A DNA stretch of 64,000 nucleotides from Escherichia phage TH12. Of this stretch, positions 3,953-53,238 are shown one piece after another; the first letter of the stretch is position 1, and every line of letters begins with the position of its first letter. The notes under the pieces were generated by a model. It made no database searches. It had not been told where the DNA came from and saw nothing but the letters and a program-made list of their open reading frames with translations. The stretch is taken from sequence record MT446390.1, one strand, 5' to 3'. The translations under genes and the position numbers were made by a program.

Positions 3953-4411
3953 ATGACTATCAATTCGGAAGTTTTTATCCGCCGTAATAAACTCCGTCGA
4001 ATCTTTGAAACGGAGTTCCGCAAAATAAATGCCGGTATAAAAGATGCTGCAAAGTCTCTTGGACTACCAGGCTTTCATATCAAGTATTCTCAACATCTCT
4101 TAGATCGTGCCATCCAGAGAGAAATAGATGAGAATTACGTTTTTGAATTATTTCATAAAGTAAAAAATCATGTTAAAGAAGTTGCAGAATTTTTATCAAT
4201 GCCGGCACGTCCAGATGTTGATGAAGATTTTGTCGAAGGTGTCGAATATCGCCCAGGCCGTTTAGAAATAACTGATGGAAATCTTTGGTTAGGTCTTACA
4301 GTTTGTCGCGAAAATCCGGCATTCAAAATGAAGACTCTTCAATGTAGAATGGCTATTATTAACAGTAAACGACTACCAGGAAAAGCTTCTAAAGCAGTGA
4401 TTAAAATCTAG
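3953..4411 (+). CDS. regB: RegB site-specific endoribonuclease
   Basis: MTINSEVFIRRNKLRR...HLLDRAIQREIDENYVFELFHK...GVEYRPGRLEITDGNLWLG...PGKASKAVIK matches recalled T4 RegB; 152 aa; track start 3929 is TTG. Confidence 0.85.
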   Translation: MTINSEVFIRRNKLRRIFETEFRKINAGIKDAAKSLGLPGFHIKYSQHLLDRAIQREIDENYVFELFHKVKNHVKEVAEFLSMPARPDVDEDFVEGVEYRPGRLEITDGNLWLGLTVCRENPAFKMKTLQCRMAIINSKRLPGKASKAVIKI

Positions 4412-4419
4412 AGGTAAAC

Positions 4420-4962
4420 ATGAGAAAAGCACTACTCGCTGGTCTATTTGCTCTTTCGTTATCAGCACATAGCTCCGAGCATACTTTTAGTAATGTCCAA
4501 CTCGATAACTTGAATTATGCTTATCAGTTTGGGGAACAGTTTTCTAAGGACGGAAAATTTAAAACGCATGAAAATATGCATAAGAAAGGACTTGGATACA
4601 TAATGGCCGCAATACTATGGCAAGAATCATCCGCAGGTATTAATCTTAAAGATAAGAAAGGTCACCATGCGTATGGAATGTTCCAAAACTATCTACCAAC
4701 AATGAGGGCAAGAATTAACCAGCTTGGTTATAATATGACTGATGCCCAAATTAAGAAAATGCTATCTAAGCGGTCTAATTCAGCAAGATGGGCTTATATC
4801 GAATTTTCTTATTGGTTAAATATACATAACGGGGATATAAGAAAAGCTATATCCTCATATAATGCGGGATGGAAGACAAGTGCTGGAAGTAAATATGCTT
4901 CTGAAGTCCTAGAAAAGGCTAATTACCTTAAATCAAATAAACTACTGGAAATAAAAGAATGA
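4420..4962 (+). CDS. Secreted SLT-domain lytic transglycosylase-like protein
   Basis: N-terminal signal peptide MRKALLAGLFALSLSAHS; SLT motifs ILWQESS...GMFQ and YNAG. Confidence 0.75.
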   Translation: MRKALLAGLFALSLSAHSSEHTFSNVQLDNLNYAYQFGEQFSKDGKFKTHENMHKKGLGYIMAAILWQESSAGINLKDKKGHHAYGMFQNYLPTMRARINQLGYNMTDAQIKKMLSKRSNSARWAYIEFSYWLNIHNGDIRKAISSYNAGWKTSAGSKYASEVLEKANYLKSNKLLEIKE

Positions 4963-5306
4963 CCAAAATGTTGGCTTTAATAGTTAGCTTGGTTTCATTT
5001 AACGCTCTTGCTAATACTACATATACTGATGTAACGGAGTATACAAACAGAACGGCGTCTGATTATTGTGGTAAAAGTCAAGAGTGTAAAGTAGATTTTT
5101 CACAAAAATTGTTATATGCGTATAAAGACGGAGAAAAAGATGGGGCGTCTAGTAGGTTCAAGGCGTCTACTTTAATTAAAAGATACTATAAAAAATGGCA
5201 AATATTAGAATGCTCGGTGGCGGAACCTAAAGATAAGGCAGCATGCAATTCTATGGTGGACCGTCTAGTTGACTCTTATACTAGAGGACTTGTAGCAAGT
5301 GATTAA
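4959..5306 (+). CDS. Small secreted protein (signal peptide, 115 aa)
   Basis: ATGA overlap with upstream stop; N-terminus MLALIVSLVSFNALANT is signal-peptide-like. Confidence 0.6.
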   Translation: MTKMLALIVSLVSFNALANTTYTDVTEYTNRTASDYCGKSQECKVDFSQKLLYAYKDGEKDGASSRFKASTLIKRYYKKWQILECSVAEPKDKAACNSMVDRLVDSYTRGLVASD

Positions 5307-5766
5307 AAACTATATCAAGGGCGATATTGTCGCCCTGTTTTCTAAAGGTAATAATATTGCTCATGGGTGCAATTGTTTTCATACAATGGGTGCCGGTGTA
5401 GCAGGTCAATTGGCAAAGGCTTATCCAAAAATTTTAGAAGCCGATAAACTTCAAACCGAATTCGGAGACGAGACTAAACTCGGGACTTATTCGGTTTATG
5501 AAAAATATTTTAAGACCCATAAAGCTTATTGCTTTAATCTTTATACACAGTTTGAGCCGGGACCTAATTTTGAGTACTCTGCTTTAATGAATTGTATAAT
5601 AGAATTAAATGAATTCGGAAAAAATAAGATAACAAAGCCTGTAATTTATATGCCAAGAATTGGTGCAGGTATTGGTGGTGGAAACTGGGATGTCATCGAA
5701 GAGATTTTAGATACGTATTCCACTAAACTAGAAATTGTGATTGTTGATTGGGAACCATTGTTATGA
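5299..5766 (+). CDS. Macro-domain (ADP-ribose-binding/hydrolase-like) protein
   Basis: GDI...IAHGCNC...MGAGVAGQLAK and C-terminal PRIGAGIGGGNW resemble macro-domain glycine-rich loops; 155 aa. Confidence 0.65.
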   Translation: MIKNYIKGDIVALFSKGNNIAHGCNCFHTMGAGVAGQLAKAYPKILEADKLQTEFGDETKLGTYSVYEKYFKTHKAYCFNLYTQFEPGPNFEYSALMNCIIELNEFGKNKITKPVIYMPRIGAGIGGGNWDVIEEILDTYSTKLEIVIVDWEPLL

Positions 5767-5969
5767 GCCAAACAAAAATTCTTACAGGTGCTAAATGCGA
5801 AAAATGCGAATGGCCTGTAGTTTTTGCTTTATGCAATGACGAAATGGCTTGTGATTTTGATTATTGGTGTTACTGTTCGAACAAAGGTTGTAGCAATCAT
5901 AAAGGTGAAGGGTTTTACTCAGGATTTTACCCTTACCCAGATTTCGTTAAAGAAGGTGAACCTAAATGA
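5763..5969 (+). CDS. Cys-rich small protein (68 aa)
   Basis: ATG 5763 overlaps upstream stop (ATGA); CEKCEW...CNDEMACDF...CYCSNKGC. Confidence 0.5.
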   Translation: MSQTKILTGAKCEKCEWPVVFALCNDEMACDFDYWCYCSNKGCSNHKGEGFYSGFYPYPDFVKEGEPK

Positions 5970-6148
5970 AATTGACTAAAGAAGAGAAAACTAAACTGTT
6001 CGAACTTATCCATGACCTATTGGATGAGCAAGCAGCCACTAATGCGTACGATGAATATGCTCCTTTAACAGACGAAGAATATCAAGCATTGATGGAATCA
6101 TTTGACAGGAAAGAACAAGAACTCATTGACTACGTGAATTCACTATAA
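5966..6148 (+). CDS. Hypothetical small acidic protein (60 aa)
   Basis: ATGA overlap; shares LIHDL motif with ORF 7954-8133. Confidence 0.5.
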   Translation: MKLTKEEKTKLFELIHDLLDEQAATNAYDEYAPLTDEEYQALMESFDRKEQELIDYVNSL

Positions 6149-6157
6149 GGGACTCTT

Positions 6158-6739
6158 ATGGCTAGTTTAATTTTTACCTATGCCGCTATGAACGCTGGTA
6201 AGTCTGCTTCATTACTTACTGCCGCACATAACTATAAAGAACGTGGCATGGGTGTATTAGTTCTTAAACCGGCTATTGATACTCGCGATTCAAAAGGTGA
6301 AATAGTCTCCCGTATTGGTATTCGTCAGGATGCCAATATAATTACAAAAGACATGGATATCTTTGAATTTTATAAATGGGCTGCAGCACAAAAGGATATT
6401 CACTGTGTATTTGTTGACGAAGCTCAGTTCTTAACTACTGAAAAGGTGTATCAACTTAGTCGTATTGTTGACGTATACAATGTGCCGGTAATGGCATACG
6501 GACTACGAACAGATTTTAAAGGTAATCTATTTGAAGGTTCTCAAGCATTAATGGCTATTGCCGATAAGCTTGTTGAACTTAAAGGTGTCTGTCATTGTGG
6601 TAAAAAGGCCACTATGGTAGCTAGAGTCACGGAAGACGGACTTCCAATTACAGATGGCAGTCAAATTGAAATTGGTGATACCGATAGATACGTGTCATTA
6701 TGCCGGAAGCATTGGAATGATTTGACAGGGTTGTTATAA
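6158..6739 (+). CDS. tk: Thymidine kinase
   Basis: MASLIFTYAAMNAGKSASLL...VFVDEAQFL...CHCGKKA...LCRKHW matches T4 Tk; 193 aa. Confidence 0.95.
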   Translation: MASLIFTYAAMNAGKSASLLTAAHNYKERGMGVLVLKPAIDTRDSKGEIVSRIGIRQDANIITKDMDIFEFYKWAAAQKDIHCVFVDEAQFLTTEKVYQLSRIVDVYNVPVMAYGLRTDFKGNLFEGSQALMAIADKLVELKGVCHCGKKATMVARVTEDGLPITDGSQIEIGDTDRYVSLCRKHWNDLTGLL

Positions 6740-6766
6740 ATACTAATATCTAACCAAGAGGTATAT

Positions 6767-6979
6767 ATGCAGCAATTAAACGAAAGACAACTTCGTAATC
6801 TTACTGTAACCCAATTGGATGAAATCCGAAGAGAATTAGGACATTCTATTTCTCATTTAAACGAGGATATCCGTCAAACTGGTTCTAAAGCTGATTATAC
6901 ACGCAAGCGCAAGCTGGAAAAATACCTCACAGATGTTAAGGCCGTCCAAAGGCGAAAAATAAATACTGGCCAAAATTAA
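6767..6979 (+). CDS. Hypothetical protein (70 aa)
   Basis: ATG with SD-like AGAGG upstream. Confidence 0.5.
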
Positions 6980-46936: not shown

Positions 46937-47587
46937 ATGATTTATTATATGCACAAAAATGCACCATTTAAATATGGTAAATTTCCTAATGCACAATGTT
47001 ATAATATAACGCCGAATGAAAATAATAACGGATACCATATTGGTGTAATTTTTGTAATTGTTAAAGATAATGAAATCGTTGCCTGGGCAGATTTTAAAGG
47101 TACAACATATGATGTTAATCCTGTGCCTTTCACATATTACAATATAATGGATTTGGCATATGATTATAATTGGTTTACTCATGATACTCTGGCACATGTT
47201 GAAGGCGTAGGATTTGATATCTCTTATTCTAGTTATTCATTATGTCCTATGAGCCGAGCTCACGGTAAAGATGTATCATATCTTTCAATTCGGAAACGTG
47301 TAAACTTCAAACGTAGTACAGAGTATGTTGGTGGACTCTTTGTTAAAGATAATAAAATAACTCGTATTAGTTATCCTTTAAGTGTAGGTCAAAAAGATGT
47401 TGATGTTGATTTAGACTTAACTGAAAGTAACATTAATCGTATTGCTTCTGTATATTTTGATATCGATGAAAAAATTGTAGTGTGTGGATACGAATTACCA
47501 CCTGAAGAAAAGGTTGAAGCAATTGAAGTCGAATTAGAAATTTCTGTTGATGACCAAATATTTAATGCATTTATGAATCGAGGTTAA
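46937..47587 (+). CDS. Hypothetical protein (216 aa), AT-rich
   Basis: ATG after AGGTGAG; track start 46928 is GTG. Confidence 0.6.
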   Translation: MIYYMHKNAPFKYGKFPNAQCYNITPNENNNGYHIGVIFVIVKDNEIVAWADFKGTTYDVNPVPFTYYNIMDLAYDYNWFTHDTLAHVEGVGFDISYSSYSLCPMSRAHGKDVSYLSIRKRVNFKRSTEYVGGLFVKDNKITRISYPLSVGQKDVDVDLDLTESNINRIASVYFDIDEKIVVCGYELPPEEKVEAIEVELEISVDDQIFNAFMNRG

Positions 47588-51990: not shown

Positions 51991-52572
51991 ATGACATGTC
52001 AATCTGAACTTCAAGAACGCGAATACCTAACAAATCTGATTGATAGCAAATTCACCCGCCAAGAACAAAACATTCTCTGGGCTTGCACTGATTCTAAGGA
52101 AGACCCAGATTTCCACTATGAATTAGACCATCTTGTCCGTAAGCATATGACTTCTACAGTACCAGTAGAACTCTACCGTGGTGTAACTCCAGAAGAAGTA
52201 GAACGTCTTTCCCTTCTTTCTGTTGGATGCCATTGGTCTCCTGGACGCGCGACATCATTCACAACTGATTTCAGTACAGCTCGTCAATTCTCTGGGAGAT
52301 GGGAATATCAAACGTACACTATTCTTAGTCTTCGAAATGCTCCATTCATTTTTGATTACTACCAAAACATGGTTAACATTATACTCGCTGGAAAGAATCC
52401 TAAGCATGTTATGGAAGAAACGCGTGTTGACGTCCTAGATATGATTGAATCTGAACAAGAATACATGGTCTCAGGTATCTCTAGATTTGAGATTGTGGAA
52501 ATTGAAGACTTAGAATATGACCCTTTATCTCGGTTATACAAAATCATTCATTTGAAAATGTTGAATTTTTAG
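51991..52572 (+). CDS. modB: ADP-ribosyltransferase ModB-like
   Basis: R-S-ExE-type elements (LYRG; SFTTDFSTA; EQEYMV); paralog of next gene; position as T4 modB. Confidence 0.65.
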   Translation: MTCQSELQEREYLTNLIDSKFTRQEQNILWACTDSKEDPDFHYELDHLVRKHMTSTVPVELYRGVTPEEVERLSLLSVGCHWSPGRATSFTTDFSTARQFSGRWEYQTYTILSLRNAPFIFDYYQNMVNIILAGKNPKHVMEETRVDVLDMIESEQEYMVSGISRFEIVEIEDLEYDPLSRLYKIIHLKMLNF

Positions 52573-52629: not shown

Positions 52630-53238
52630 ATGTTTATGCCGTATAACGAGTGTGAAATTGAAGAAATGGTTCGTCGTGCTCAAAACCCCGAATATCAAGA
52701 TGTATTGCAGTACGAAATTGATAGTCAATTCAGCGACATTGAACAAAGTGTACTGTGGCAGTGTATGGAAAACAAGCCAGATAGCATCCAACAGGAGTTA
52801 AGTTCAATCGTTCGTAGAAATTGGACGTCTTCTGTTCCTGAGACAATGTATCGTGGAATCTCTAAGAAAACTATGGCCACACTTGATGATAAAGGCATTG
52901 GTAGTATTATTAAATTTGACAGAGTAATGAGCTTCAGCCCAGTGTTCGGTGTAGCACGTAACTTTGCTTCGTATAATTTTTACGGAACATTTAATATGTT
53001 CTGCATCAAAGATGCACCATTTGCTTTCAACTTCCGTGAACATATGCTTAATATGATTCTGGCTGCGCCATCTTGCGAGTTCAATGGAGCTTTCCCTGAA
53101 GCAACAAGACGGTCTAATGCTAGACTTATATCTGACGAATGCGAATTTATGCTCCCTATAGGGACTACACTGCGTGTAGATTCTATTATTCAAGATGGAC
53201 GTTATACAATCTGGAATCTGTCTATTGTCAGTTACTGA
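52630..53238 (+). CDS. modA: ADP-ribosyltransferase ModA-like
   Basis: MYRG; SFSPVFGVA; DECEFML; paralog of 51991 ORF; position as T4 modA. Confidence 0.65.
   Translation: MFMPYNECEIEEMVRRAQNPEYQDVLQYEIDSQFSDIEQSVLWQCMENKPDSIQQELSSIVRRNWTSSVPETMYRGISKKTMATLDDKGIGSIIKFDRVMSFSPVFGVARNFASYNFYGTFNMFCIKDAPFAFNFREHMLNMILAAPSCEFNGAFPEATRRSNARLISDECEFMLPIGTTLRVDSIIQDGRYTIWNLSIVSY

Follow-up and report, generated by a model that had tools for sequence, protein, structure and literature searches.

We conclude that the protein encoded at positions 5299–5766 of the window (the whole stretch of 64,000 nucleotides analyzed here, from Escherichia phage TH12, MT446390.1) is, with near certainty, a macrodomain, and that it is probably the functional equivalent of T4 AdfM, which would make it an enzyme that hydrolyzes thymidine-linked ADP-ribose. 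Alignment and gene order identify the gene as the ortholog of T4 tk.4 (adfM), in a syntenic position. An anti-DarTG2 role has already been published for the T4 ortholog, and near-identical proteins have been deposited as macro-domain proteins.

Organization of the tk.4 region

Megablast placed the window in the genus Mosigvirus (RB69-like) of the Straboviridae. Positions 4400–6800 were 99.0–99.3% identical to the phages PECP20, CCU7, CAU_ECP01 and Shigella phage Shf125875, and the first 25 kb of the window was about 97% identical to other members of the Mosigvirus group. The following features define the region.

4959–5306, + strand: vs, valyl-tRNA synthetase modifier (ORF list, Shf125875 annotation and T4 gene order)
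5284–5288, + strand: Shine-Dalgarno-like GAGGA, 10 nt upstream of the tk.4 GTG and within the end of vs (read from the sequence)
5299–5766, + strand: tk.4/adfM ortholog, a stand-alone macrodomain protein of 155 aa (155 codons, GTG start, TGA stop; ORF list, Pfam Macro and 85% identity to T4 Tk.4)
5763–5969, + strand: small ORF at the tk.3 position, directly downstream of tk.4

Shf125875 carries tk.4 annotated at matching coordinates, 99.4% identical to its counterpart in the window, within the gene order regB, vs.1, vs, tk.4, two small ORFs and tk. The order from vs to tk.4 is identical in the window and in T4. The GTG start codon of the window gene occupies the position of the ATG in the T4 homolog, and T4 also has a GAGGA at the equivalent site ahead of that ATG. 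Because vs and tk.4 overlap by 8 nt, and the tk.4 stop codon overlaps the ATG of the downstream small ORF (ATGA), tk.4 is part of a tightly packed same-strand cluster. The gene would presumably be co-transcribed with the vs–tk cluster. A scan for sigma-70 promoters found 13 sites versus 15.5 expected and hence no excess, a result that is uninformative on T4-type early or middle promoters.

Three further observations were made in this region. A GC-rich hairpin with an 8-bp stem and a T-run after it (AGGGCGATATTGTCGCCCT GTTTTCT), at 5318–5336 on the + strand and within the first 40 nt of tk.4, was flagged as terminator-like. Its stem is identical in T4 tk.4, and the 81 nt around it had a folding z-score of only −1.8. 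Given this weak z-score and the conserved peptide KGDIVAL, the hairpin may be a by-product of coding. Most close relatives contain an extra 213-bp ORF just 3′ of tk.4 (e.g. L009:1364-1576, PQ572755.1) that is absent from the window (at about 5766) and from Shf125875, so that relatives are polymorphic for the presence of this ORF at the macro gene's 3′ end. Upstream, the vs.1 homolog (4420–4962, + strand) begins with a signal-peptide-like N-terminal segment (MRKALLAGLFALSLSAHS) and is an SLT transglycosylase according to the annotation of one related record.

The tk.4 product has an ALC1/TARG1-like macrodomain fold

The sequence-only reading had identified a macro domain from an N-terminal GDI and NC and from two glycine-rich loops. 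These motifs were found as quoted, with GDI at residues 8–10, NC at 25–26, MGAGVAGQ at 30–37 and PRIGAGIGGG at 119–128, and the call itself was right in that HMM searches, profile-profile comparison and the predicted fold all agree. Pfam Macro (PF01661) matched residues 22–136, corresponding to profile positions 2–117 of 118, with a score of 28.7 bits versus a gathering cut-off of 22 (E=1.3e-6), and PHROG 335 matched with E=8e-67. When PDB sequences were searched with phmmer, the matches included Bt_1257 (6e-11), yeast Poa1p (1e-8), SCO6735 (7e-5) and TARG1 (1e-3); the DarG macrodomains were weak matches at the sequence level (E=5e-4 and 2.5e-3).

An AlphaFold model built from the single sequence (pLDDT 37.7) was discarded, and a run with an alignment of 91 family sequences was used instead. 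The AF2 model from this alignment had a pLDDT of 95.7 and a pTM of 0.91, and the three-layer alpha/beta/alpha macro fold was present in the prediction. A Foldseek search of the PDB with this model was led by TARG1, Poa1p, DarG and Bt_1257, with TARG1 on top (E=2.3e-10). Since these proteins were the first structural matches, we assigned the tk.4 product to the ALC1/TARG1-like macrodomain class; its nearest structural relatives are TARG1, DarG, SCO6735/Bt_1257 and Poa1p, not MacroD or PARG. The conserved glycine-rich loops suggest that the protein binds ADP-ribose.

The family is widespread and is named inconsistently. A tblastn survey recovered members of the tk.4 family from 2795 phage records, among which were phages of Pseudomonas, Vibrio, Acinetobacter and Aeromonas, and macro domains have been reported in about 40% of myoviruses (PMC9503650). 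The Shf125875 gene is labeled ‘phosphatase; similar to RB69 tk.4’ in RefSeq, while GenBank names for the same gene elsewhere include ‘macro domain protein’, ‘Poa1p-like family protein’, ‘ADP-ribose binding module’ and ‘hypothetical protein’. We also observed a BFVD match to A0A481YV05 of Marseillevirus LCMAC103, annotated ‘SNF2 subfamily protein’, whose macro domain shares 34% identity with the phage protein (TM 0.85). This eukaryotic giant virus protein has an ALC1-like arrangement of macro and SNF2 domains.

Active-site residues of the tk.4 family

Thirteen positions were invariant in the alignment of 91 sequences (G23, N25, G33, A35, D49, G62, N80, Y82, Q84, P119, I121, G122 and G124), and three segments of the putative active site were delimited.

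5362–5409, + strand: putative first ADP-ribose-binding loop, H22–Q37 (HGCNCFHTMGAGVAGQ; family conservation)
5536–5550, + strand: end of the central strand, N80–Q84 (NLYTQ; hhalign and family conservation)
5653–5688, + strand: second, putative diphosphate-binding glycine-rich loop, P119–W130 (PRIGAGIGGGNW; family conservation and alignment to TARG1 PRIGCGLDRLQW)

In the first loop, N25, G33 and A35 are invariant and H22, C24, C26, M30 and G31 are nearly so. N25 aligns with N23 of PhiKZ AdfM, while H22 and T29 align in the phmmer alignment with H23 and S30 of Poa1p, residues that were mutated in PDB entries 6LFS and 6LFT. N80, Y82 and Q84 of the NLYTQ segment are invariant, as are P119, I121, G122 and G124 of the second loop.

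We compared the family profile with a second alignment consisting of the Taq, Mtb and Thermosipho DarG proteins and PhiKZ gp104. The hhalign match had a probability of 98.8% and placed NLYTQ (residues 80–84) opposite NFPTK, in which the Lys is the catalytic Lys80 of DarG and the equivalent of TARG1 Lys84 (PMC9411070). A comparison with human TARG1 (OARD1), whose sequence as used here was self-consistent in its numbering, gave a probability of 98.3% and aligned Q84 with K84 and G126 with D125. Thus, where TARG1 has a K84/D125 dyad the window protein has Q84 and G126, and with Gln opposite the Lys and Gly opposite the Asp the tk.4 family lacks both known catalytic residues of the class.

The invariant Gln at the catalytic-Lys site appears to make the family SCO6735-like rather than DarG-like. 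SCO6735 of Streptomyces coelicolor (PDB 5E3B) and Bt_1257 (PDB 2FG1/2AFC), which are 54% identical to each other, are ALC1-like macrodomains of the Gln type that contain Gln for Lys as in the window protein. When the family profile was aligned to Bt_1257 with hhalign, NLYTQ matched NMIGQ and Q84 matched Gln. A pairwise HMMER alignment was ungapped at about residues 75–95 and instead placed Q84 opposite Asp; the profile-profile alignment, which contains a 6-residue gap, was preferred because both N80 and Q84 are then matched by identical residues. The equivalence of Q84 and SCO6735 Gln85 was drawn via Bt_1257 and a published statement, and a direct alignment to SCO6735 (5E3B) reached the C-terminal loop only.

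In SCO6735, Gln85 is the equivalent of the DarG/TARG1 Lys and a Q85A substitution is inactive. SCO6735 outpaces both DarG and TARG1 in cleaving thymidine-linked ADP-ribose off DNA and relieves the toxicity of DarT; according to the proposed mechanism, the distal ribose is held in position by the Gln and the reaction is initiated by a water molecule (PMC9411070). As the phage family has an invariant Gln84 and no DarG/TARG1 catalytic Lys, its chemistry is probably of the SCO6735 type, with Gln84 presumably serving the same positioning role. One feature of the phage family would count against SCO6735-like DNA hydrolysis. SCO6735 and Bt_1257 have a mobile loop that exceeds its DarG/TARG1 counterpart by about 5 residues and has been proposed to act as a DNA clamp. 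In Bt_1257, taken as the best structural match to the window protein, the loop after the Gln is 6 residues longer than in the phage family, from which the mobile-loop extension is missing.

Orthology to T4 Tk.4 and the DarTG2 defense

Toxin-antitoxin modules of the DarTG type are a common defense against phages. T4 Tk.4 (NP_049723, ‘phosphatase; contains A1pp phosphatase motif’) and the window protein align gap-free over 155/155 residues with 85% identity, and none of the 23 substitutions affects any of the 13 invariant family positions. The two genes differ in their start codons (ATG in T4, GTG in the window), and T4 Tk.4 has K127 in the second glycine loop where the window protein has G127. 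T4 tk.4 lies between vs and tk.3/tk.2/tk.1/tk, and the arrangement regB-vs.1-vs-tk.4-...-tk seen in Shf125875 is shared with T4.

DarT2 ADP-ribosylates thymidine in single-stranded DNA (PMC11825919). T4 without adfA and adfN remained resistant to DarTG2 (PMC11825919), which predicted that T4 has a further anti-DarTG2 factor; AdfN itself is a NADAR enzyme that counters DarT1 (PMC11825919). In a November 2025 preprint, a T4 transposon library was grown on E. coli expressing DarTG2 and tk.4 was the sole significant hit; a clean tk.4 knockout rendered T4 sensitive to DarTG2 (bioRxiv 10.1101/2025.11.20.689424). The gene was renamed adfM (anti-DarT factor, macrodomain), and its structure was likened to the M. 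tuberculosis DarG macrodomain. The authors state that enzymatic removal of ADP-ribose from DNA by T4 AdfM ‘seems likely’, with support that is genetic (bioRxiv 10.1101/2025.11.20.689424).

The earlier suggestion that the macro protein could reverse DarT-type DNA ADP-ribosylation therefore matches the published phenotype of the T4 ortholog, and it applies to the window protein by orthology only (85% identity, synteny and 13/13 invariant positions). By extension from that genetic phenotype, the window allele would also be expected to act against DarTG2. According to this model, the host DarTG2 system would release DarT2, which would transfer ADP-ribose onto thymidines of single-stranded phage DNA and thereby block replication. 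The phage protein would most likely grip the ADP-ribose via both glycine-rich loops and cleave the bond between thymidine and ribose, thus restoring normal DNA.

The window also contains a homolog of T4 gp61.2/AdfA (46937–47587, + strand; 216 aa from the first ATG), in which the His of T4 (INHIASVY) is matched by an Arg (INRIASVY). With numbering begun at Met5, this Arg corresponds to R164 of the RB69 protein, an allele reported to be unable to neutralize DarT1 (PMC11825919). The Shf125875 homolog is annotated as 189 aa and differs at its C-terminus, suggesting that one or other genome carries a frameshift.

Comparison with DarG and PhiKZ AdfM

DarG (PDB 5M31/5M3E, 5M3I and 7OMU) and PhiKZ AdfM carry the FPTK Lys, whereas the window protein has Gln84. 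Against the DarG equivalog NF048014, the window protein scored 33 bits versus a cut-off of 250 and covered only positions 4–146 of 338; the C-terminal DarT-binding domain of DarG is absent from the 155-aa protein, and no darT is found next to tk.4, the neighbors of which are vs and the ORF at the tk.3 position.

PhiKZ gp104, a chimallivirus macrodomain that was independently named AdfM, strips DarT2-made ADP-ribose from an oligonucleotide, rescues DarT2 toxicity and is needed for growth of PhiKZ on DarTG2 strains; its N23A variant has reduced activity (PMC13309987). This protein is clearly DarG-like, with the FPTK Lys, a match to M. tuberculosis DarG at E=9e-25 and a score of 132.9 bits with the PADLOC DarG profile, versus 34.1 for the window protein. 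A BLAST match between the window protein and PhiKZ gp104 was limited to 23 residues. Judged from these comparisons, two macrodomain lineages share the name AdfM, which is a functional label and does not denote one family. An origin of the window protein as a DarG-derived ‘orphan antitoxin’ was considered and not adopted, as it lacks the catalytic Lys and the second domain and is not strongly similar to the DarG profiles.

The published mutants raise the possibility that the window protein counters DarT2 without catalysis, either as an inhibitor that binds the toxin or as a shield on ADP-ribosylated DNA. The dead variants SCO6735 Q85A, DarG K80A and TARG1 K84A each inhibit DarT in vitro by interaction (PMC9411070), and the T4 deletion phenotype fits hydrolysis and inhibition alike. 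We nevertheless consider a non-catalytic mode of action decidedly improbable. N25, G33, N80, Y82, Q84, G122 and G124 are invariant among family members down to 37% identity, and since these residues belong to the ADP-ribose site, their invariance is more in keeping with a conserved small-molecule site than with a rapidly evolving surface for toxin binding. In addition, the part of DarG known to bind DarT is the very domain that the phage protein lacks.

Relationship to Adpp and the phosphatase annotation

Homologs of the window protein also occur in phage operons that rebuild NAD+. NARP1 consists of Adps and Namat, which regenerate NAD+ from ADP-ribose and nicotinamide, and some operons add a macro protein called Adpp (10.64898/2026.01.28.702374, a January 2026 preprint). 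Purified Adpp of phage Gary (KNV71_gp137) dephosphorylates ADPR-1″-phosphate, the product of the aRES RES-domain NADase defense; Adps, Adpp and Namat are all needed against aRES, and Poa1p is the nearest known Adpp homolog by HHpred (10.64898/2026.01.28.702374). Gary Adpp and the window protein share 36% identity over 136 aa (E=5.7e-19); Adpp keeps the HxCNC, NxYxQ and GxGxxGG glycine-loop motifs and has 7 additional residues inserted behind the Gln. In Vibrio phage VF16, a macro homolog of 39% identity has as its neighbors genes labeled ‘ribose-phosphate pyrophosphokinase’ and ‘nicotinamide phosphoribosyltransferase’. T4-type AdfM and Adpp are members of a single phage macrodomain family and share their active-site residues. 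In the NARP1-AP operons of VF16 (L004:3132-6149) and Gary (L006:2129-5159), the macro homolog, 36–39% identical, is flanked by Adps and Namat. We also noted RNA ligase and phosphoesterase genes nearby.

This relationship bears on whether the window protein is mainly an ADP-ribose-1″-phosphate phosphatase of the Poa1p/Adpp type, converting ADPR-1″P to ADP-ribose, with the DarTG2 effect being secondary. Database names for the family (‘phosphatase’, ‘A1pp phosphatase motif’) point in this direction, as do the presence of Poa1p among the best structural and sequence matches, the alignment of H22 and T29 with Poa1p H23 and S30, and the finding that the 36%-identical Gary Adpp dephosphorylates ADPR-1P by LC-MS and lets NARP1 beat aRES. 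We still regard this reading as unlikely. Adpp acts within an Adps-Adpp-Namat operon, whereas Adps and Namat are absent here: tblastn with the Gary proteins gave best E values above 1 in the window and in Shf125875 positions 1–25000 and 65000–164999, a search that, window included, covered all but about 4 kb (about 97%) of Shf125875, and neither gene is annotated in the Shf125875 regions examined. ADP-ribose made in this phage would consequently have no known route back to NAD+, such that a phosphatase role without NARP1 would offer no obvious payoff. Moreover, the sole reported conditional phenotype of the T4 ortholog is with DarTG2, and the substrate shown for Gary Adpp is the small molecule ADPR-1″P, not DNA.

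Because their motifs are common to Adpp and the T4-type family, sequence motifs cannot separate a DNA ADP-ribosyl hydrolase from an ADPR-1″P phosphatase, whereas the genomic context can. The two activities are not mutually exclusive, and the window protein may have phosphatase activity alongside the DNA hydrolase activity that we favor. A single bifunctional enzyme that serves as an anti-DarTG2 DNA eraser and as an ADPR-1″P phosphatase (anti-aRES when combined with NARP1), using a Gln-based SCO6735-like mechanism rather than the Lys chemistry of DarG, is a tentative proposal that we hold to be somewhat less than an even prospect.

The phage ADP-ribosyltransferases

The sequence-only reading had also noted that the phage encodes ADP-ribosyltransferases of its own, which is borne out by the presence of modA and modB in the window and of alt in the closest genome.

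51991–52569, + strand: modB ADP-ribosyltransferase (tblastn, 99% identity to Shf125875 ModB)
52630–53235, + strand: modA ADP-ribosyltransferase (tblastn, 99.5% identity to Shf125875 ModA)

The further suggestion that the macro protein tunes ModA/ModB activity found no support, as no evidence was found that ties the macro gene to modA or modB. Macrodomains generally erase ADP-ribose marks, and a phage with these transferases could in principle use one to reverse or tune its own Alt, ModA or ModB marks on host proteins or RNA. We judge this most improbable for several reasons. The macro gene is about 46 kb from modA/modB, and the phylogenetic ranges of the genes differ, with 2795 phage records for the macro family versus 1051 for ModB-like ARTs, nearly all of the latter from enterobacterial T4-like phages. 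The Alt/Mod enzymes are arginine-specific, and the annotation ‘NAD:arginine ADP-ribosyltransferase’ occurs among the ModB-like records. For ALC1-class macrodomains, in contrast, activity is documented on Asp/Glu- and thymidine-linked ADP-ribose but is not known for the Arg linkage; TARG1, for example, also removes thymidine-linked ADP-ribose (PMC9411070). Finally, CmdTAC, an mRNA ADP-ribosyltransferase, defends strongly against T4 despite Tk.4. Since T4 is restricted in this way, Tk.4 is not a general eraser of nucleic-acid ADP-ribosylation, and a role against CmdTAC or as a general RNA ADP-ribose eraser was rejected on the same grounds.

Implications for phage counter-defense

T-even phages appear to stack anti-DarTG measures, namely AdfA, the NADAR protein AdfN acting against the guanine modification made by DarT1, and the macrodomain AdfM acting against the thymidine modification made by DarT2. 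As the window shows, an intact adfM ortholog has been retained in the RB69-like lineage. If the bifunctional reading were true, two macrodomain lineages would have been recruited for the same counter-defense, one of the Gln type (Tk.4) and the other of the Lys type (PhiKZ gp104). The presence of Gln instead of Lys in T4-type AdfM and its kinship to Adpp are apparently not yet in the literature. Both bear on the substrate specificity and on the annotation of phage macrodomains, which are currently labeled mostly ‘phosphatase’ or ‘hypothetical’.
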